This document shows positions 5,914 to 27,417 of a stretch of 64,000 nucleotides of DNA, one piece after another; the stretch's first letter is position 1; each line of letters starts with the position of its first letter. Under the pieces are notes generated by a model. That model saw nothing but the letters and a program-made list of their open reading frames with translations. It ran no database searches and had not been told where the DNA came from. A program made the translations under genes and the position numbers. Source of the stretch: a virus (Duplodnaviria > Caudoviricetes); IMG/VR virus record IMGVR_UViG_3300028833_003520. One strand, given 5' to 3'.

Positions 5914-6483
5914 TTAATCCGTAAAGCCTTCATCAAGATTGAATATCTTGAATGGATAGGGCTTATCCTTATCTGTAAGAATTGAAGGGTCAAAGAGAGT
6001 CTGAATTATCTTGGATTCAAGTGAGAAATTGCTTGTTATAACAATAGAAACATTGTTTGGTATAGCAACAATAAGGTCACCGATTTCGATGGTGCGAGTT
6101 GTAGCAAGTTCGATTGCTTTCTGTATGAATCTTCTTCTGACACAGGTGTAATCAATGTCGTCGAACAATAAGACATATCGCTTGTTAGGGTTTTCTTTTG
6201 TCTTCTTAAGAAGGTCGATTTCGAAGAGACCGCTATTAAGAGAAGCCATATCCTTATAAATTGTTTCGTAGCCAAATTCGTTACAGATGGACTGAATAGT
6301 GAAAGTCTTGCCGTTACCAGGCGTACCGATTATGAAAATAGGTGTTTCAGGGTTGTTTGCAAGGCTTGCAGCCATCTTTATTGAGATTTCGTTCATTGTT
6401 TTAAGTCTTGTCATAATCTCAAAAGCGTGCTCACGCACATACGTCTTGCGATTACAACCGAGAGCCGTTGCTAAATTAGCCAT
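5914..6483 (-). CDS. AAA+ ATPase (MoxR/AAA_5-like, short)
   Basis: Walker A GTPGNGKT, Walker B LLFDD, sensor-1-like IVITSN. Confidence 0.8.
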   Translation of the reverse strand: MANLATALGCNRKTYVREHAFEIMTRLKTMNEISIKMAASLANNPETPIFIIGTPGNGKTFTIQSICNEFGYETIYKDMASLNSGLFEIDLLKKTKENPNKRYVLLFDDIDYTCVRRRFIQKAIELATTRTIEIGDLIVAIPNNVSIVITSNFSLESKIIQTLFDPSILTDKDKPYPFKIFNLDEGFTD

Positions 6484-6486
6484 AGG

Positions 6487-6690
6487 TTATTCTCCTTTAG
6501 GTGATGAAAAGTCAGAGGCAATTTGTTCCTTGACTTTGGAGCAGATGTCTGCATCTCGCCCTGAGCAGTGGAACTGTTCAATAGCACTTTTTTCGCAATA
6601 GTCGCAAAAGTGTGTTATGGTGTAAACAGCATCTTTATTGGTTTCAATAGTGATAGGCTTAGTGAAAGAAGACTGGTATGTTTTGGACAT
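6487..6690 (-). CDS. Small Cys-containing protein
   Basis: Start MSKTYQ behind AAAGGAG. Confidence 0.65.
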   Translation of the reverse strand: MSKTYQSSFTKPITIETNKDAVYTITHFCDYCEKSAIEQFHCSGRDADICSKVKEQIASDFSSPKGE

Positions 6691-6703
6691 ATTAAGACTC
6701 CTT

Positions 6704-6988
6704 TCACTGAATGATACCAAGTTCACGAAGAACGGTCTTGATACGAGTTCTCGCATCAAGTTCTTTTTCAAAAGCAGTAATGAAAGGAGAAAGAAAGTCT
6801 TCTCTATACGAGTCACGCTTGATGTAATTGAGAGTGTTTTTAATGTGGTCAGTGCTCATCTCGCAGATTTTGAGTTTCTGACCATCTTTAGTTGTCCAGA
6901 TGCCGCTTGCGGCAGCGGATTCAACTGACGCTTCCATTACAGCATAGTTTATTTCCATTTCTTCTGCGAGTTCTGAGCCATAAGACAT
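6704..6988 (-). CDS. Phage-type hypothetical protein (WTTKDG..MSTDHIKN)
   Basis: ORF, GGAGAG RBS. Confidence 0.75.
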   Translation of the reverse strand: MSYGSELAEEMEINYAVMEASVESAAASGIWTTKDGQKLKICEMSTDHIKNTLNYIKRDSYREDFLSPFITAFEKELDARTRIKTVLRELGIIQ

Positions 6989-6991
6989 AAG

Positions 6992-7360
6992 TTACTCTCC
7001 TTTCTTTATGGATGCGATGAGTTCTTCTGCAGAAGGCATTAGTGATATATCAGTAATGACTTCGGATGGAATAAGTGCATATCGCCAATAACATCTGTGC
7101 TCTTTCGATTCTTCGACAAGATGTGCATAGACATCTTCAGCACAGTTGTCGTAATAAGCGAGATGCCAAGGTGCATCGTCAGCACCTCTGTCTTTGACAT
7201 AAATCAAAGCAATATTTTCTTGCTCTGAATTGATAGTGTTAGGTAGGATTACGCCAGGTTTTAGAATTATATCTCGGTAGTCATAATCCCAACCGCCACA
7301 CTCTGTTCTTTTCCATTCACTGAATTCTGATTCAGGTGATACGAATGTGGTTGCAGTCAT
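6992..7360 (-). CDS. Hypothetical protein
   Basis: ORF, AAGGAG RBS. Confidence 0.75.
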   Translation of the reverse strand: MTATTFVSPESEFSEWKRTECGGWDYDYRDIILKPGVILPNTINSEQENIALIYVKDRGADDAPWHLAYYDNCAEDVYAHLVEESKEHRCYWRYALIPSEVITDISLMPSAEELIASIKKGE

Positions 7361-9225: not shown

Positions 9226-9858
9226 TTAGCCTTGTCTGAAGTTACATCTTATAGCGAACTTGTCGTCGTTAAAGTGTTTAATACAGGCTTTAATCCAATC
9301 AGGCTTGAAATTTTCTGTAACTTTACGACCATAATCATCTTCGAAGATTTGGTCATAAAATAGCAATGGTGGATGTTTGGTTGTTACGTTTTGGTTGGGA
9401 TAACTAAACCCATAGTCCGTAAGGACAATGCTGATTTCGTTAAGGCGTATATCAGATTCGTTGATATAATTCCAAATCATTTCTATATCTGTACCACCAT
9501 CAACCATAGGTCTTTGTCTTGCTTGTGTTAAAGCCGAATTGACGGTTCTATCGGCAACTCGGATTTTGTATGTCGGTCCAAGCAGATGAGAAAATGATGT
9601 GATATAAAGGTCACAGTCCAAAGTTTTTGCGATACAGATGTATTTAGCAACCATAAACCAAATCAGATTTCTGTCTAATACAGAACCAGATGAATCGAGA
9701 TACAGATGGATAGGCTGATTTGCGTACTTTGGGATGTAGTTCTTAACACCTTTCACCCAACAAAACTCTGTAAGAGGAATTGTTGTAGGTAAAAGCATAT
9801 CTTTGATTAGACGCTTGATTTCGTTAGGCTCAAGCCATTCCTGATGTTCTCTGTTCAT
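9226..9858 (-). CDS. VWA-domain protein
   Basis: MIDAS DSSGS, GGTD and VLTD motifs. Confidence 0.8.
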   Translation of the reverse strand: MNREHQEWLEPNEIKRLIKDMLLPTTIPLTEFCWVKGVKNYIPKYANQPIHLYLDSSGSVLDRNLIWFMVAKYICIAKTLDCDLYITSFSHLLGPTYKIRVADRTVNSALTQARQRPMVDGGTDIEMIWNYINESDIRLNEISIVLTDYGFSYPNQNVTTKHPPLLFYDQIFEDDYGRKVTENFKPDWIKACIKHFNDDKFAIRCNFRQG

Positions 9859-9873
9859 AGTAGTTACTCCTTT

Positions 9874-13055: not shown

Positions 13056-13130
13056 TGGTGTGCTTGAGGGGACTCGAACCCCTGGCTCTCTGATTAAAAG
13101 TCAGATACTCTACCACTGAGTTACAAGCAC
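13056..13130 (-). tRNA. tRNA-Lys(UUU)
   Basis: Full cloverleaf: GTGCTTG/CAAGCAC acceptor, TCTGA-CTTTTAA-TCAGA anticodon arm, TTCGAGT T-loop, encoded CCA. Confidence 0.95.
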
Positions 13131-13137
13131 ATATAAA

Positions 13138-13238
13138 TGGAGCACCGAGCAGGATTTGAACCTACATCTTCCGATATTCTCGGCTGTTTTACTGAATTGA
13201 GAGTTAGATATCATTACTCAATATTAAACTATCGGTGC
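13138..13238 (-). ncRNA. tRNA-like RNA with enlarged D-loop and 5-nt anticodon loop
   Basis: Perfect GCACCGA/TCGGTGC acceptor + CCA, GTAGG-TTCAAAT-CCTGC T-arm; ~28-nt hairpin insert in D-loop; CCGA-GAATA-TCGG anticodon arm. Confidence 0.75.
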
Positions 13239-13241
13239 GTA

Positions 13242-13316
13242 TGGCTGAGGTTGGCGGATTCGAACCGCCGAATGCAGGAGTCAAAGACCTGTGCCTTACC
13301 GCTTGGCAAAACCTCA
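13242..13316 (-). tRNA. tRNA-Gln(UUG)
   Basis: TGAGGTT/AACCTCA acceptor, CTTTGAC anticodon loop, GGCGG-TTCGAAT-CCGCC T-arm, CCA. Confidence 0.92.
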
Positions 13317-14225: not shown

Positions 14226-14558
14226 TTATTCATCCAGGTTTTCACCAGTGACAAGCAGTTTATCAAGGTCGAACTTGTAAACAGGGTATGTGCAAAATCC
14301 TGAACGGAGTGTCATACCTGTGAATGTACCGAGTTCGTATTTCTCGATAAACTCTTCTGCCCAAGAGCAGTTGTTTGTATCAACGGCTGCAAGAGGAGCA
14401 GGAAGTGGGTCAATGTTAACTGTAAGTGTGGCAAACGGACCTTCGTTTTCTGCATCAATGCAGATAGCAAGGTTTCCGTTGTCAGAATAGTGAGAGATAT
14501 TGGTGTGAAGATTGTAGGTTTCACCATATGCTTTGAGAGTGTATGCAGGCTTGCTCAT
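14226..14558 (-). CDS. DUF4313-like protein
   Basis: YxDNGNLAI..PFATLTVN..VDTNN..SGFCTYPVYKF signature, recalled from the family. Confidence 0.75.
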   Translation of the reverse strand: MSKPAYTLKAYGETYNLHTNISHYSDNGNLAICIDAENEGPFATLTVNIDPLPAPLAAVDTNNCSWAEEFIEKYELGTFTGMTLRSGFCTYPVYKFDLDKLLVTGENLDE

Positions 14559-17292: not shown

Positions 17293-17838
17293 TTATGAAA
17301 CAGGCACAACAATTGGATATAAAATAGTAGTTGTACCACCATTTTCTTCATTAGCGACAGGCTCTTTGTGTGTGAGATATATTGCTTGCTTGTCATCATC
17401 TACAATGACATTGTAGTTTGCAAGAGCCACTGTATCGTAATTAACCTCAGTTCCATCAAGATAAACTTTATATGTTGCTCTTGTATCTGCCATTTGCTCC
17501 GCCTGAGTAACGGCAGCGTTATAAGCAGCAAGTTTTGCTTCATAATCTGCTTTTTCTTGGGGTATGAGAGTGTACATATAGATAGCGGATGCAAGACCAG
17601 TTATACCGAGAAGAGCAACTGCTGTAAGCAGAATATCTCTCACAACAGTAGTGGGAGAAGGGTGACGGATTCTATCGAAGAGGTCACCCCATTCATCATC
17701 AATGAGGAAGCCAATTCCGATTGTTGCAAAGATGATGCCAACAATAAGAATTATTGTTGCAAGGACAATGCTACCAACGACATTTGATTTCGGCATTACT
17801 TCAGTAATGTATTGTCTTAAAAATTCGATATTAGTCAT
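17293..17838 (-). CDS. Membrane protein (2 TM)
   Basis: Hydrophobic segments, AAAGGA RBS. Confidence 0.75.
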   Translation of the reverse strand: MTNIEFLRQYITEVMPKSNVVGSIVLATIILIVGIIFATIGIGFLIDDEWGDLFDRIRHPSPTTVVRDILLTAVALLGITGLASAIYMYTLIPQEKADYEAKLAAYNAAVTQAEQMADTRATYKVYLDGTEVNYDTVALANYNVIVDDDKQAIYLTHKEPVANEENGGTTTILYPIVVPVS

Positions 17839-17870
17839 ATTGATGTCCTTTCTATGAAATAGAGTCTCTG

Positions 17871-17901
17871 AAAAAAAGGGTAGAGTTTTCCAACTCTACC
17901 C
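17871..17901 (-). terminator. Intrinsic terminator after HIRAN gene
   Basis: GGGTAGAGTT/AACTCTACCC stem + U-tract on -. Confidence 0.85.
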
Positions 17902-17915
17902 TGAAAGGCTCTGGC

Positions 17916-18356
17916 TTATACTACGTTCTCGTTACGGTTCATATTGAAGACGTAAGCGTATGCACGAGAATCATAAGCGATTGCAGGGATTCCCAATCTC
18001 TTTGCAAGAGATTTCGCATAATGATACTGCTTCTGTGAAGGCTTCTTGATAGTATCAAGGACCACGTAGTAGTTGTTCTTATAGTGACGAATGAATCCAG
18101 TCATTTGCTCATCCAAATCGGGATTAGCAAGTTCACTTTTAGGAATCCAGCCAATAATTTTACGAGAATTATGCTCGACTACCTTAATGGCATATTCGTC
18201 TTCATCTGTTTCGGGATTATGATAGATTGTGTCCATCAAATCGGTTGTAATAATGCCACCGCACATAGACGTAGCAAAATTGCGGAGTATATCCTGACGG
18301 TTTTCACCATCTTCGTTTGCGAAGGTAACACCTGCGAGTTTTAGTTCTTTTATCAT
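17916..18356 (-). CDS. HIRAN-domain protein
   Basis: LAGVTF..RQ..NPxxDxxAIKV...IGWIP motifs. Confidence 0.7.
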   Translation of the reverse strand: MIKELKLAGVTFANEDGENRQDILRNFATSMCGGIITTDLMDTIYHNPETDEDEYAIKVVEHNSRKIIGWIPKSELANPDLDEQMTGFIRHYKNNYYVVLDTIKKPSQKQYHYAKSLAKRLGIPAIAYDSRAYAYVFNMNRNENVV

Positions 18357-18560
18357 AGTCGTAATTCCTTTCTTAAAAATTCTATAATGTATTTTTGCTT
18401 CTTATAAACTCGAAAAAAGAGACAAAGAAGTATCAAAGATGCTATTGGAACCGTTAGGTTCTCCTGACAGAACTGTAAACAGTTCTGTCCCCTTTTCATT
18501 AAGGCAAAGTAAGTTCTTTTGTAAAAGAATCTACAGCACTGCAGATAACGCAATGAAAAT

Positions 18561-18615: not shown

Positions 18616-19056
18616 TTAGTAGTCAGCACTACAGTCTTCTGTGTAGTTTTCTACAGATTCTTCTTCAGTATCAGTTGTTTCTGTGTCAGAATCGTCTTCT
18701 GCAGAGTCACAGCGATGAGCACAGTTACTACAATCGCAGTCACATTCAGATTCGAGTTCATCCATATCTATAGGTGGATTGCGAACTTCTTCAGGAAGTG
18801 CCATATACTCTTCCTTCATCTGTCTATAAGCAGAAGCGTCCATCCAAGATGTCTGTCTGGCATCATTCTTAGCCCAGCCTACTTCCTTATCCTTGTAGAA
18901 GAATGTAGCACCTTCTTTTGTGTATTCGATACGGCACATCTTGCGGATGATTGTATTTACAGTACCCCAAGAATCACCTTCGAATTCGTATTTTTCTGCC
19001 TGCTTTGTCTGAATAGCAGAGGGAACGAGTTTAGCGAGATTAGACTTGATAGACAT
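18616..19056 (-). CDS. Hypothetical protein with acidic Cys-rich C-terminus
   Basis: AAAGGAG RBS, monocistronic cassette. Confidence 0.8.
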   Translation of the reverse strand: MSIKSNLAKLVPSAIQTKQAEKYEFEGDSWGTVNTIIRKMCRIEYTKEGATFFYKDKEVGWAKNDARQTSWMDASAYRQMKEEYMALPEEVRNPPIDMDELESECDCDCSNCAHRCDSAEDDSDTETTDTEEESVENYTEDCSADY

Positions 19057-19220
19057 AAGTGTGTCTCCTTTCTATGAATAAAATAATGTATTTTATGAGT
19101 AGAACCCAACCAAGAGTTTCTATCTCAAAGATATCCTGAGCAACCAGGCTGGTTGCCCATTGTCTGACTGCCAAGCGGTCAGACTTTTTGTGTAATCACT
19201 ATGATTATAAAGGGGATATG

Positions 19221-20224: not shown

Positions 20225-20593
20225 TTAATCATCAGTGTTATAGTTGTAATTAGGATTTCTGGCATAGCCGTTTATTGCATATAAACGCTTATCAGAAATG
20301 GAACAATTGTTATTTGACGGTTCTTTGTAAGTGATTACATTGTATTTACCGTCATCAGTTTTTTCGCTGATTACGAAATAGTGCGTTTCGTCAACAGCAA
20401 TGTTGATGGTTCCATCGGTGTTGTAGTACGCAAGATAAGGATTGAGGAATGTTTCTCTGATTGTATTGACGAATACACCTCTTTCCTTAATACGAATGAT
20501 TGCGTGCTTTGTTAAGCGGTAGTGATATGCAATATCGTATAAGACTTCCTGTGGTACTAACTGACCGTGTTTCTCAAATAAAGTATCTCCCAT
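20225..20593 (-). CDS. DUF4258-like protein
   Basis: LTKHAIIRIKERG..NVITY pattern; start MGDTL behind GGAAGGA. Confidence 0.55.
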   Translation of the reverse strand: MGDTLFEKHGQLVPQEVLYDIAYHYRLTKHAIIRIKERGVFVNTIRETFLNPYLAYYNTDGTINIAVDETHYFVISEKTDDGKYNVITYKEPSNNNCSISDKRLYAINGYARNPNYNYNTDD

Positions 20594-20722
20594 ATTCGTT
20601 TCCTTCCTATTCATAATGTATTAGAGAATGAAATCTCAAAAATGATTAGGGGCGAACGAACAGCGAGCCAATTTACACGCTTAGAAGGATGATAAGCGTG
20701 CTGTTAATCAGACTTAATTCTT

Positions 20723-20961
20723 AAAAAAAAAAAGCAGACATCTCATACGAGACATCTGCTTCTTTCATAGAAAGGCGGTTTATAGCAATGATAGACGGTG
20801 ATTATGGACATTCTGTCACGTCGCGGCAAAATCCTTATGCCGCCGTGTAAGTTTTCCGACTGTAAGGAGACATATTATGTCAATACTTTTCGATGCGTCG
20901 TTATGGTCAGACATTGGTATTTTCGAGGAACTCGTGTCTATCAGCCACGTAACCTATTTGT
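20723..20961 (-). ncRNA. Candidate sRNA A (two anti-RBS seeds + terminator)
   Basis: Terminator 20723-20760 (G.U pairs only on -); seeds 20763-20782 and 20864-20881; hairpin element 20969-20985 upstream. Confidence 0.6.
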
Positions 20962-21016
20962 TTTATGGATTTCCGTGCAGGAAATTCGTTGGGTAGGGGA
21001 TGTTAACAGTGCAAGT

Positions 21017-21092
21017 AAAAAGAAGAAAGGGCGAGTACGAATGTACTTGCCCGTCTTGAAGAATATATATACAAAGAGAACTCTTATAGATT
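21017..21092 (-). ncRNA. Candidate sRNA B
   Basis: GGGCGAGTAC/GTACTTGCCC stem + U-tract; hairpin element 21101-21115 upstream; no ORF. Confidence 0.5.
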
Positions 21093-21149
21093 CTCCATCT
21101 CTTTCGTGCAGAAAGTTGCTTTTATATCTAAATGGAAAGGTTTTATCCG

Positions 21150-21230
21150 AAAAAAAAAAGATAGCAACGGGCGGAGGAAACCCATTGCTATCTGAAAGGA
21201 GGATGTTTATGAAGAGTTTATTTCAAAAGT
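21150..21230 (-). ncRNA. Candidate sRNA C (CCUCCUUUC seed)
   Basis: Terminator 21150-21192; anti-SD immediately 5' of it; hairpin element 21237-21255 upstream. Confidence 0.6.
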
Positions 21231-21287
21231 TTTCTGGGCGAGTGGGCAATGAGCCAATTTAAGAAAGATATTTAAGTGTAATAGGAG

Positions 21288-21359
21288 AAAAAAAATAGGC
21301 ACTCCCCGAAGGGAATGCCTATCTTAAAATACATTATAGAAAGGAGGAATACTAAACTT
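21288..21359 (-). ncRNA. Candidate sRNA D (CCUCCUUUCUAUAAUGUAUUUUA seed)
   Basis: UUCG-capped terminator 21288-21322 on -; seed 21325-21347; hairpin element 21367-21383 upstream. Confidence 0.65.
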
Positions 21360-21464
21360 CTTATGGATTTTTGAACAGAAAATTGAGGTAAGGGTTTAAC
21401 GTCATCTGTAAAGATGACTTTCTTTTGGGCGTAACCAAAAGAAAACGGAAAGAACTTCACGCAG

Positions 21465-21562
21465 AAAAAAAAACAGGTATGCCGAATGGCATACCTGCGA
21501 AACACACATAAATTTTTCGTTAAGAATAGTCTAAGCACTACGAGCATTGTGTTTACACAGGT
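21465..21562 (-). ncRNA. Candidate sRNA E
   Basis: CAGGTATGCC/GGCATACCTG terminator + U-tract; hairpin element 21570-21586 upstream; no anti-SD. Confidence 0.5.
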
Positions 21563-21612
21563 CTTATGGATTTCCGTACAGGAAATACGTTTTAAGGAAC
21601 GGCAGTTTTGTG

Positions 21613-21641
21613 TTGACATTCTCCATATATGGCGTTATACT
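21613..21641 (+). promoter_or_regulatory. Sigma-A promoter of PcfJ-like gene
   Basis: TTGACA-17-TATACT. Confidence 0.8.
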
Positions 21642-21686
21642 GATTTTAAGTTGAAAAACTCTGTTTTTGTAAGGAGATTTATAGAT

Positions 21687-23966
21687 ATGAAACAATCAGT
21701 TTCTATTCCACTTAAGTCATTAAGGGAAGATAAAAAGTCAACCTTCACAGTAGATACTGTGAACGGAATTTGTGGTTGTGCCGATTGTAGAAAAACATAT
21801 CGAGCAACAAAAGAAGATACTTGGAGAGGTAATCGTTATAAGATGGACACACCGTGTCCTGATTGTGGTGGCAAGCAACTTTCAAGTTCACTTCTTTCTG
21901 ACCTTCCGATTGATACAACTGCGAAGACAAGAGCAAAGAAGAAGATGGCAATTAAGAAGGATATTAAGCAAGATGTATATCGTAGCGATGATGATAAGTT
22001 ACAGAGAGTAACGACCGTTAGTACCTACGATGTATTTACTATTTACCCTTCTAATCGTATGCATTCACAGACAATTGAATGTACATTCACGGCTGATATG
22101 GATGCAGGTACTATGCAGTGTTCTTATATGGATGTTACTGATAAGGAGCATCCTGTTCCGATTGGTATGTATGACCTCGATTCACAGTATGCGAACGGTT
22201 ACAATCAGTTCAATGGTCTTGAAGTAATGAATGCGAACTCGATTAGAAAGTATCAGACGAAAGGTGGTTACGAAAGGTCTATTGTACCTTTTGTAAATTC
22301 ACTGAAATATACATCTGATTCTTTTGGTAATAATGTCGTGTCGAAGAACTTGGCAACAACGATAGCAAATGAGTTTGATATTGAAGTTGACCAAGGTAAT
22401 GAGTCTCGTAGGATGGCAATGGTTGACTTTATGGTACGATATCCAGGTTTGAGAGATATGGTGCTTGAGCACGTAAACGAGAACCTTTCGTACAAGCAGG
22501 ATTTGACCGACCGAGAGAAGAGATTAGAGAGAACTAAGGAAGTCAACAAGTATGTTAAGCAAATGTCTAATGTTGACCAAAAACTCCTTGCTGACTTGAG
22601 ACAGTGTAAGACTGGTGATGAAGCCTATAGTTATCTCAGTCGAGTTACTTTCGGTAAGGAAGCAGACGGTTCAAAGATTAAGGATTCTTTCATCAGTCGT
22701 GTTAACATTGATGAGGCTTCCTTTGACGGTTATGGTATTCATAAGAAGATAAGGAAGAATTTTAATCAGAATCCTCTTGGAACTGCTAATTTCGTATATA
22801 CGACAATCGGTAAGATTGGCTTTAGAGATGTAAACCATCTTTATCAGATGCTTGACCTTATGGAAAGTCAGAAGACATCTGATGACGATTGGTATCATAA
22901 TAAGAAGGCATTCAACGGTGATACCATTACTCCGATTGAGAAGAAGTCTCAGTTACGTTTTATTAAGACTTATGCGAAGTCGCACACACCTGGTCAGACA
23001 ATCAAGGATTGGTATGAGAATAAAGGTAATTATGAGATGTTCAGCGATTGTGCAGATATGTACAATAAGATGTGTGAAGTTGGATATGTCTGTGCGACGC
23101 AAGCAGAATGCGATATAGCGTCTGCTGAAGATGCCAAGCGTAAGATTAAAGGTTTGATGGACGAAGGTATGGATAAAGATGCTATCGTCGAAGCAGTCGA
23201 GCCTTACTGGGCAGTTAATGGTGATACATCCGTAGCAACAACATTGGTCGAAAAGACTATCGAAGATATCAAGGTCAATGGTGTTGAAGAGAAGGTTGCC
23301 TTCTATGGTAGAGATGGTAAGCCGTTGATTTCGAATCGTACTCCGCAGGAAATTCACGATGAGTTGTCCAGGAAGAATCGTACTATTCAGGAACTCTCTG
23401 GTGGTCCGAAGAGAGCAGGATATACGAAGGAGATTAGAGATAGGTTTAATCTTGATATTGGCGATTATAAGTTCAGAATACCGAAGAATACTTATGAGGT
23501 AATCAGAACTGGTGAGCAGATGCAGATTTGTGTCGGTGGTTCAGGCTACTGTAATTCAGTACAGAGAGGAGACCCTCACTGTATTATCGTGACTATGGCT
23601 GATAAGGCTGGTCAGAAGGTAGGCTGTATTGAGATTAACAACGATAATATCAAGCAGTTTAAGTCGCCTCGTAACCACGCAATCTGCGATGAAAGATGCG
23701 GTAAAGGAGCCGTAGATGCAGCGAAGGAGTTTATCGAGAAAGCGAAATTAAATGACTCTTGTGAAGATGTACGTCATTTCTGTGATGAAAATTATGCACC
23801 ATATGGTGATGGAGATTTCACTCAGGCTCATCTTCCTTCGAATCCTTATCCGAGTCCTCGTGTTATGATGGCATATTTCAAGGGTGATTTAGGGAAGAAT
23901 AACCGCAAATTACCTGAAGTGCCTGTAGCACAAGCACAGGCTGAATCACAACAGTCTTTGGAGTAA
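21687..23966 (+). CDS. PcfJ-like domain protein with N-terminal Zn ribbon (759 aa)
   Basis: EIHDELS..FRIPKNTYEVIRTGEQMQICVG..Y..IEI..IKQFK..RN PcfJ-type C-terminus; CxxC pairs; start MKQSV behind AAGGAG and promoter. Confidence 0.75.
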   Translation: MKQSVSIPLKSLREDKKSTFTVDTVNGICGCADCRKTYRATKEDTWRGNRYKMDTPCPDCGGKQLSSSLLSDLPIDTTAKTRAKKKMAIKKDIKQDVYRSDDDKLQRVTTVSTYDVFTIYPSNRMHSQTIECTFTADMDAGTMQCSYMDVTDKEHPVPIGMYDLDSQYANGYNQFNGLEVMNANSIRKYQTKGGYERSIVPFVNSLKYTSDSFGNNVVSKNLATTIANEFDIEVDQGNESRRMAMVDFMVRYPGLRDMVLEHVNENLSYKQDLTDREKRLERTKEVNKYVKQMSNVDQKLLADLRQCKTGDEAYSYLSRVTFGKEADGSKIKDSFISRVNIDEASFDGYGIHKKIRKNFNQNPLGTANFVYTTIGKIGFRDVNHLYQMLDLMESQKTSDDDWYHNKKAFNGDTITPIEKKSQLRFIKTYAKSHTPGQTIKDWYENKGNYEMFSDCADMYNKMCEVGYVCATQAECDIASAEDAKRKIKGLMDEGMDKDAIVEAVEPYWAVNGDTSVATTLVEKTIEDIKVNGVEEKVAFYGRDGKPLISNRTPQEIHDELSRKNRTIQELSGGPKRAGYTKEIRDRFNLDIGDYKFRIPKNTYEVIRTGEQMQICVGGSGYCNSVQRGDPHCIIVTMADKAGQKVGCIEINNDNIKQFKSPRNHAICDERCGKGAVDAAKEFIEKAKLNDSCEDVRHFCDENYAPYGDGDFTQAHLPSNPYPSPRVMMAYFKGDLGKNNRKLPEVPVAQAQAESQQSLE

Positions 23967-24489: not shown

Positions 24490-26560
24490 TACTGATAAAT
24501 GAACAGAAAGTTTTGCTTTTTGGTAGTTGAGCGATAGCGTCGATGAGACTCGTGCTGGTCTGTTGCTGGTAAGCAGGCAGTTTCCTGCCTGGCTAAAACT
24601 TGGATACTGTTGCGGATACTTTGATGCAGTTTTTGCAAAGGCAAGTGCTGCGAAGTTGCTGCGGTTGGCAGCGAAATATTAAGTTATGTTCCGCCTGTCC
24701 CTGAATGTGATAAATCCCTGAGCATTGGAAGTAGCCCTTTCTTCTTGACGGGGTTGGATTTAGGCGTAAAGTTGCAGAAGGGTTCACACCTCACTTTTTT
24801 CTTGCTTCCGCCGTTACCCGAAGGTCGAGTTCCTCTTCTTTACCGTTTACCCAGAAGGTTCCCAGAACAGCCTCTCCTCTCCAGTTAGACTGATGGTTCT
24901 GATTCTCTCAAGCGTCGCAAAATTCTATAACAATATAGACCAAAAACGGAAAACGCATTCCATCAAATCGTAAATTTGTGTGTAAGATTTCTTAAAGGAA
25001 GACATAGACTAAAGAGACAACGAATTCGAGGGACTTGTCGTGAGAATGAGTGGCTTCTGCCTGATAAGAAATGAAGCCTTTCTTAAAGAAGAATATTCTT
25101 TGCCCTTAAAATGTGGTGATTTTTGGGAGAAACCACCCTTTTTGAAAGTATTTTAAGGGAAAAGGCAAGTGTAACGAAAATTGTATAAGTTTCGTGACAA
25201 AGAATTATTGTCTAACTACGATTTTATCGTGACTTTAGGAATGCCGCCGAGATGCAATGTGGTTAATCTATATAGTTTTCAGCATTTTGACAACCTTAAA
25301 TGTGATTACTAAAAGCAACGAAATACGGTGCAACCAATTTCATTGATTAAACTTGTTGGTCTTACTCTATGATTTCATCATTGTTGTGCCCTGCGTTTGC
25401 GGAGCGTAGAACCAAATTTCGCAGGAAATGAAGGGTTCTATTTTGTCTAAAGATGTTGAAGGTGAGGGTTTCTCACTTTGCGATAAAGATAGCAATAGTG
25501 GGGTTGAGCCAAGACATCGTTTAACTGTTGTTCTGATTACGATTTAATCGTCCGTTGCAAGAGCCAAGAGGGTCGAGGGAATTGGTATTCCCTAATTAGT
25601 CTTATCTTGTTTTCATTATTCGTGACAATTTCACGATGAACGACATCCAACCGCCTTGACGCGGTAAAGGATGGAAGTCTAATTTGTTGAACCTTTCGTG
25701 ATTTAGAAAGGTCTATATTTTTCTGCGAAGACACTAACAAATTTTGGAGCAACTTCTGCAACGATACACGCAGTTACAGAAGGGGAAACGAAAAAAAAAA
25801 GATTAAGGATGTTGACAAGTTTATCTTGGTGACCTCACAAGAAAAAAAATAGGAATATACAGACTTTAGTGTCTGCACATTCCTATAGTAAAAAAAAAAA
25901 ATGGACATCTCGATTAAGAGATATCCATCTTTTCTCCGAAAAGGAGCATAACAGAAAAAACATCACAAGTGATTTTGAGTCGGGTACACCGACTTGTTGG
26001 TGCTCCTCAAACCGTAGAGGTTTGAATTTTCGTGAGAAAATGGAGCCGCCAGGAATTGCGACATTAAGGAGCAAATCCAAGCGAAAATCCGATGAATATA
26101 AAGTGGTTAAAAGATAAGCGATGTGCTGGTGGTGGAAGTAGTGAATCAAAAATTCGCTGTAGAGGATTTTGAGGCTTAATAAAGCCGATAGCATTACAAA
26201 GAATAATGCGAAAAAAAAGGTAAAAGGATTTACGTGTCCAGCACTTTATGTGCTGAAAAGGAGATGAAAGTTAAGTATGTTTTGTTGAGTATAAACGAAG
26301 CAAAAATAATTAACTTTTAGCGGAATGACAAAGTAGCACGGACCAAGAGGTTGTGAATTGTGTCCGAGCGTAAATATAATGTCAGTATGTTAATCCAAAG
26401 GCTTACTGCCGTATTGTTATTTTAAGGCTGATAGCCGATTAAACTACAAGATTAGTTTGCAAAGTTTTGTTGTAAGTGTTCGACAGTTTATCTGTCGCTT
26501 CGCAAGAGTTCATCGTCTGCTCATTAAACTTTTTTTGTTAGTTTTTCACCAATGTTTAAT
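24490..26560. other. ~2-kb non-coding, hairpin-rich region (candidate origin / regulatory hub)
   Basis: No credible ORF; many stem-loops; tandem minus-strand terminators at 25842-25928. Confidence 0.5.
25890..25970 (-). ncRNA. Candidate sRNA F (antisense to RBS of gene 29237)
   Basis: Terminator 25890-25928; seed 25940-25956; CACAAGT box and AGTCGG-GTACA-CCGACT hairpin upstream. Confidence 0.65.
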
Positions 26561-26586
26561 GGTGTTAAGAAGGTAACAGAATAAAG

Positions 26587-26622
26587 AAAAAAAAAAGAAG
26601 GACAGTCAAATGACTGTCCTTC
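26587..26622 (-). terminator. ssb terminator
   Basis: GAAGGACAGTCA/TGACTGTCCTTC + U-tract. Confidence 0.9.
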
Positions 26623-27388: not shown

Positions 27389-27417
27389 TTGACATCTGCT
27401 TTTTTATCCCTTATAAT
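27389..27417 (+). promoter_or_regulatory. Consensus sigma-A promoter of partition operon
   Basis: TTGACA-17-TATAAT after a very AT-rich tract. Confidence 0.9.

Follow-up and report, generated by a model that had tools for sequence, protein, structure and literature searches.

The window analysed here is a stretch of 64,000 nucleotides whose source is a giant conjugative element from cattle rumen, and rumen and bovine metagenomes yielded contigs, up to 243 kb long, with proteins identical to those of the window. Besides a PcfJ-like protein, the element encodes an actin-like partition protein, SSB, RNase H, a topoisomerase and a sortase, and a surface protein of 3,517 aa with T-Q ester/SpaA is also encoded on the window; this gene content points to a Gram-positive conjugative-type element. 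The phage and plasmid collections contained no DNA match to the window, the sole hit of the protein search against them was a 29% match to the PcfJ domain, and PcfJ-based scans of viral, genome and metagenome collections returned one locus, without usable upstream DNA. Only three tRNAs reached the gathering score when the window was searched with Rfam. Three tRNA-like genes are clustered at 13059–13316 (minus strand), and the middle one (13141–13238) is 98 nt long with a score of just 39 bits.

Positions 1–20614 are occupied by small genes on the minus strand, all in one direction, and from 21687 on the genes run in the opposite direction. The gap between the two gene runs is 1.09 kb long, holds no credible gene and carries five tandem terminators on the minus strand. 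Between 17.8 and 21.8 kb, 17 terminator-like sites were found, while 2.7 were expected. Furthermore, a sequence complementary to the Shine–Dalgarno (SD) motif, hereafter anti-SD, directly precedes the terminator in four of the six units (A, C, D and F). The features of the gap and of unit D are as follows.

20723–21686, minus strand: non-coding array of five terminator-ended units (A–E), with the first cassette on one side and the divergent PcfJ-like gene on the other
21687–23966, plus strand: PcfJ-like protein
21352–21465, minus strand: 'head' of D, three small hairpins, including a repeated element at 21367–21383 with a conserved 5-nt loop
21325–21351, minus strand: proposed single-stranded seed of RNA D, complement of the leader box and SD (the plus strand reads box, then SD)
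21288–21325, minus strand: intrinsic terminator of D, 12–15 bp stem with a C(UUCG)G loop and U8 at 21288–21295

The stem of the D terminator is GC-rich, and its single G.U pair on the minus strand becomes C.A on the plus strand. No T-run follows it on the plus strand, so it would act on the minus strand only. The minimal RNA of D (21351 to 21286) is predicted to fold into a 26-nt unpaired 5' segment and the terminator. The coding capacity of the D locus is limited to an ORF of 3 codons, and over D the Rfam search gave merely terminator-like sub-threshold matches. No sigma-70-like promoter of 9/12 or better was detected in the D head (minus strand, 21352–21465); by contrast, near-consensus promoters precede plus-strand genes at 21613–21641 and near 27390.

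The short hairpin of the D head, with covarying stems and the conserved 5-nt loop, is repeated on the plus strand at 20969, 21101, 21367, 21570, 25978, 27129 and 33111. A TTGTG/TTTTG box follows about 9 nt after it, and the hairpin heads the sRNA-like units as well as the ssb and RNase H genes. Hairpins and terminators also abound in another region of about 2 kb without credible ORFs (24500–26600). A sixth terminator-ended unit lies within it, at 25890–25994, and no Rfam family matched the region. On the other side of the array, gene 17293–17838 starts merely 32 nt past a strong terminator (17839–17915 region), so its expression must depend on read-through or antitermination.

Shared leader box and its inverted copy in unit D

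A preliminary description of this DNA had proposed that the seed of a small RNA, D, is complementary to the leaders of three neighbouring cassette genes. All of the sense and inverted matches it listed (16, 13 and 10 nt, together with SD-like parts) were recovered at the positions given, and the string quoted for D was found to span 21325–21346, one base short of the end at 21347 that had been reported. The three leaders are the following.

18357–18395, minus strand: leader of gene 17916–18356, box 18380–18395 (16-nt match), SD 18365–18372; identical in L012, the near strain introduced below
19057–19095, minus strand: leader of gene 18616–19056, box 19083–19095 (13-nt match); the SD block 19065–19075 matches 11 nt more
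20594–20622, minus strand: leader of gene 20225–20593, box 20613–20622 (10-nt match), SD block 20601–20610

The 10-mer AATACATTAT is present in exactly four copies in the 64-kb window (0.39 expected, sd 0.6, 100 dinucleotide shuffles), a count that 0 of the 100 shuffles reached, and its one-mismatch variants are not enriched (15 vs 9.3). All four copies are in non-coding DNA within 3 kb (18.38–21.34 kb). Three of them lie in minus-strand leaders in sense orientation, 22–43 nt upstream of the start codons, and the fourth is inverted (21328–21337). On the plus strand, 21326–21341 forms a perfect 16-nt inverted repeat of 18380–18395, 21325–21337 matches 19083–19095 over 13 nt, and 21328–21337 matches 20613–20622 over 10 nt. 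Alignment of the four copies revealed an invariant 10-mer and then the SD, with little else in common and the same polarity throughout, and each copy is located just after a hairpin. The matches outside the SD were evaluated by trimming each leader of its final 14 nt, which hold the SD and the spacer, and comparing the remainder with the plus strand of the array, using 200 shuffles. The longest non-SD matches of the three cassettes were 16 nt (0/200 shuffles), 13 nt (0/200) and 10 nt (p~0.055), and four other leaders gave background-level matches only, of 7–8 nt.

When the 27-nt seed of D was paired with 68 start regions, the three cassettes ranked 1, 2 and 3 (-22.9, -20.4 and -19.9), the fourth-best start region reached -18.8, and the median of the 68 was -10.9. 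Co-folding of D with the leaders kept the terminator and paired the seed. The net pairing gain was -14 to -16 kcal/mol for the cassettes and -9.6 to -13.2 for other leaders with a strong SD. This advantage over other strong SDs is just 1–5 kcal/mol because the SD part gives most of the pairing energy, and the thermodynamic specificity of D for the three cassettes is weak. The earlier argument that most of the pairing lies outside the SD thus stands by nucleotide count but not by energy, to which the AU-rich box adds little. Within the 18356 leader itself, the box is predicted to pair with the SD and the start region. If the 5' end of D were downstream of the anti-SD, D could have an activating role, in which its binding opens this leader hairpin.

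The product of gene 17916–18356 had been taken for a HIRAN protein. This identity was not borne out, as no Pfam match was obtained even at E<=5, and its AlphaFold2 model (pLDDT 67) had no Foldseek match in the PDB at E<=0.001.

Conservation in near strains and relatives

The contig L012, which comes from a strain of about 96% identity, spans the gap. Compared with it, the array shows 0.87 substitutions per 100 nt and the flanking genes 2.0–7.7. The seed and terminator of D (64 nt) have no changes, and the five substitutions in D all fall in the head, two of them in a hairpin loop (21429 and 21431). Indels of L012 at 20778, 20835 and 20991 interrupt the only long plus-strand ORF of the gap, and the plus-strand ORF 20798–21262 (152–154 aa), a gene call in some assemblies, was rejected because of the frameshifting indels in L012. 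The 1-kb array is non-coding and more conserved than the flanking genes. The cassette heads, too, are conserved at about 100% while the 146-aa protein of 18616–19056 falls to 86–89% identity. The remaining near contigs are 99.8–100% identical overall; because the seed and leaders are 99–100% identical among these near relatives, there is no covariation inside the lineage.

Some minor features of the gap were also noted. On the plus strand, an ORF of 37 codons (20878–20991) is fairly hydrophobic and is overlapped by the minus-strand unit A; its SD is well spaced, and a site at 20805–20832 weakly resembles a promoter. In L012 the ORF is open too and gains 3 codons. It could encode a small protein that has a cis-antisense partner, arranged much as in type I toxin–antitoxin systems. 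Two contigs from different sources, L008 and L011, have the same first base (both 20698), 25 nt downstream of the terminator of unit A, and another contig, L010 (20944), begins 16 nt past the unit A hairpin. If derived from RNA samples, these starts could mark 5' ends, but other contigs end at long A/T runs, and contig starts were not counted as evidence.

L002, a syntenic contig from a bovine metagenome, is more distant (54% identity for PcfJ and 68% for the ortholog of 17916–18356) and has four minus-strand terminators in the corresponding intergenic gap. The second of these (9058–9023) contains three G.U pairs on the minus strand. Before it, with no spacer, lies a segment whose plus strand copies the start region of the element's own orthologous gene over 39 nt (p~0.03), covering an A/T box of 11 nt, the SD and the first three codons, ATG included; out of 26, the copied start region ranks as the best predicted partner of this segment (-24.6 vs -19.7). 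Since L002 and the window do not have the same matched box, the two elements differ in seed and target alike. In the L002 ortholog of 18616–19056 the box takes yet another form, of which a 12-nt inverted copy occurs at 9850–9861 (p~0.015) with no adjoining terminator. Two different box/copy pairs in L002 are hard to reconcile with a single DNA-binding protein; they fit either RNA–RNA pairing or repeated inverted duplication of start regions, on statistics that are modest.

Among four other relatives (L014, L017, L018 and L019, with 55–65% identity in the target protein), no matching antisense copy was found in the DNA available, and no terminator array was seen in the two that were scanned for it (L014 and L019). 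A similar A-rich box is kept in the orthologous leader of three of these four. As these relatives keep it while showing no D-like unit, the box may have a cis role of its own.

Other observations concern the same region in the relatives. In L014, a wolf-gut relative, an IS605-type OrfB/TnpB gene (6144–7271) sits at the place of the array, between the PcfJ-like gene and the run of small genes. The promoter of the PcfJ-like gene is near-consensus (TTGACA, 17 nt, TATACT; 21613–21641 in the window, 9929–9957 in L002 and 2403–2431 in L019), and its spacer holds the palindrome CCATATATGG. All 29 nt of the promoter are shared with L002, although the proteins are 54% identical; such conservation suggests that the spacer contains an operator. 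The hairpin layout of the window's ssb gene recurs at the ssb gene of L002, at about 14405–14425, with a different stem.

Candidate antisense role of D and alternative explanations

The reading we favour, tentatively and with confidence somewhat short of even, is that D is a candidate trans-acting antisense sRNA on the three cassette leaders. D would be a minus-strand gene for a small non-coding RNA, whose transcript ends at the terminator 21325–21288. The inverted copy of the box lies 0–3 nt from this minus-strand-only terminator, so that a minus-strand RNA would end with an exposed anti-leader and anti-SD stretch, namely about 22–27 unstructured nt just 5' of the hairpin that are the reverse complement of box and SD. 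Such an RNA would pair in trans with the leaders of the cassette genes starting at 18356, 19056 and 20593, most likely occluding the ribosome-binding region and lowering translation. The unit probably goes back to a cassette start region that was copied in part and in inverted orientation, an origin that the preliminary description had also suggested and that fits both the window and L002. From the sequence we infer transcription of D and its 5' end, pairing in vivo and a probably negative effect; its anatomy, its non-coding status, its conservation and the parallel in L002 are direct observations on the DNA.

Conjugative elements are expected to switch on their establishment and anti-defence genes quickly after transfer, and only for a short time. 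To our knowledge, the control of such genes in Gram-positive elements is largely unknown, and the mechanism of EGeRS1 of pLS20 is still open. A trans-acting RNA that arose from an inverted copy of the start region of one of its targets would be a simple and evolvable post-transcriptional brake, and one such RNA would serve several cassettes through their common leader box. An antisense role would also explain why non-coding DNA is here more conserved than genes. In a broader form of this reading, which we regard as unlikely though worth stating, the whole gap would be a bank of antisense RNAs derived from inverted leading-type start regions, each headed by the covarying hairpin as an unconventional promoter (perhaps read on the incoming single-stranded DNA or by an element-encoded polymerase), and D would time or shut off the three establishment cassettes together. 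If true, a Gram-positive conjugative megaplasmid would here shut off its establishment genes in an RNA-programmed manner. If the unit is merely a remnant or an insulator, the finding shrinks to an ordinary leader shared by cassettes.

The remnant-or-insulator account, which seems to us somewhat improbable, takes the box as a cis part of a reused cassette head (either a leader element or a promoter -10 with the start region), treats the copy at 21326 as an inverted remnant that has no role in trans, and sees the terminators as insulators that keep read-through out of silent leading-type genes. In its favour are the constant arrangement of the four copies (box then SD, each just after a hairpin) and the box in three of the four relatives that show no D-like unit. 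Heads at about 100% beside genes at 86–89% protein identity are what one would expect if regulatory modules are reused or recombine, as PeSLs do (PMC2839356); the EGeRS1 regions of pLS20, moreover, have no sigma-A promoters and block read-through (PMC8708921). The three bases preceding ACATTAT complete, in every copy, a hexamer that resembles a -10 box and has A2 and T6. As part of a sigma-A promoter the box could be read in either orientation, since -10-like hexamers occur both ways and the antisense side even shows TATAAT in perfect form, both at D and at 18383–18388. However, no -35 or TG extension accompanies the hexamer in any copy and in either orientation, and the upstream TTTGA box lies at a varying distance of 14 to 41 nt. 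Nor would one expect a remnant to lie 0–3 nt from a U8 terminator of the opposite strand or to be invariant within a region more conserved than the genes, and a remnant leaves unexplained the analogous unit of different sequence in L002. Separately, terminator-like hairpins of the plus strand were noticed inside two cassette heads (18466–18489 and 19162–19184); since they lie 80–100 nt downstream of the antisense-side -10-like box, cis-antisense RNAs to the cassette leaders are possible.

Three further explanations were weighed. The anti-leader segments might act in cis, so that long minus-strand read-through transcripts from the PcfJ side fold back on the cassette leaders and become untranslatable while transcripts from a cassette's own head are translated. 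The five same-strand tandem terminators with no sigma-A promoters between them, the anti-SD just before the terminators of units A, C, D and F, and the gene at 17293–17838, whose start implies read-through somewhere in the block, would agree with this; but terminators with runs of 8–11 U should permit little read-through, the repeated hairpin heads between them suggest separate starts, and pairing over 0.7–3 kb is unlikely to beat local folding, so that we consider it improbable. It is a little harder still to believe that the copy at 21326 serves the plus strand, as the promoter or leader of a short RNA ending at a weak terminator (21401–21428) or of a mini-ORF. The plus strand does offer a terminator-like hairpin at 21401–21418 and an SD-like GGAGG followed by ATG GAT TTT TGA, yet the ATG is 15 nt from the SD and opens just 3 codons, the terminator has only 3 G-C pairs, and the upstream A8 and GC hairpin would be without function on this strand, where it carries the C.A mismatch. 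Finally, the 10-mer might be an operator that a DNA-binding regulator of the cassettes recognises in either orientation, as its repetition in the control regions of neighbouring genes and a weakly palindromic core (AAT..ATT) might suggest. This we regard as very improbable: the repeated unit is box plus SD in fixed polarity rather than a dyad, the two leader boxes of L002, each with its own inverted copy, would require two proteins, and no regulator gene was identified next to the 10-mer.

Comparison with known regulatory systems

FinP/traJ of F-like plasmids and Sok/hok (flm) are plasmid antisense RNAs that end at terminators and block translation at the leader or ribosome-binding site, and the flm locus lies in the leading region of F. 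FinP and Sok are encoded in cis, opposite a single target and with full complementarity, whereas D lies 0.7–3 kb away and would pair partially with three genes via a common box. RoxS/RsaE, FsrA and RNAIII are anti-SD sRNAs of Firmicutes that combine an unstructured, pyrimidine-rich seed with an intrinsic terminator and act on several targets. Their seeds are C-rich loop motifs of chromosomal regulators, while the seed of D is a linear copy of a leader on the 5' side; unlike them, D is carried on a mobile element beside its putative targets and matches no Rfam family. By analogy, these plasmid antisense RNAs (FinP, Sok) and Firmicute anti-SD sRNAs are the closest functional analogues of the proposed RNA. 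The antisense RNA of a type I toxin–antitoxin pair was considered for D and rejected, because the targets are soluble proteins of 122–146 aa and no toxin-like ORF is present at the D locus.

Other systems resemble the arrangement of the cassettes. In the pLS20 family, EGeRS1 and EGeRS2 are conserved repeats directly upstream of the ribosome-binding sites of several establishment-type operons (PMC8708921, PMC6294495). EGeRS1 is 400–750 bp long and GC-rich, with no antisense partner described, whereas the element described here has a core of 10–16 nt and an inverted partner beside a terminator. PeSLs of T4-type phages are near-identical regulatory modules that flank diverging small accessory genes and can mediate their shuffling (PMC2839356). 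The window's cassettes share with them the high conservation of heads relative to genes. However, PeSLs consist of a strong sigma-70 promoter and a stem-loop, all oriented with the genes. Here the key copy is inverted, and the cassette heads contain no strong sigma-70 promoter, their highest-scoring site reaching 9/12 with a spacer of 18 nt. A further parallel is offered by Frpo/ssi, the single-stranded DNA promoters known from F and ColIb-P9, where hairpins likewise head leading-region units and genes lack ordinary promoters; in Frpo-type promoters a long stem-loop reconstitutes the -35 and -10 boxes (PMC12672017). The cassettes had been called hairpin-driven. Taken in the sense of such F-type promoters, this was not borne out by the DNA folds of the three cassette heads, which are short hairpins (z -2.2 to -3.7) with no rebuilt promoter. 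Compared with the plasmid antisense RNAs and the Firmicute anti-SD sRNAs, D is set apart by its encoding in trans beside several targets, by its being a copy of a specific leader, and by its place in an array of similar units.
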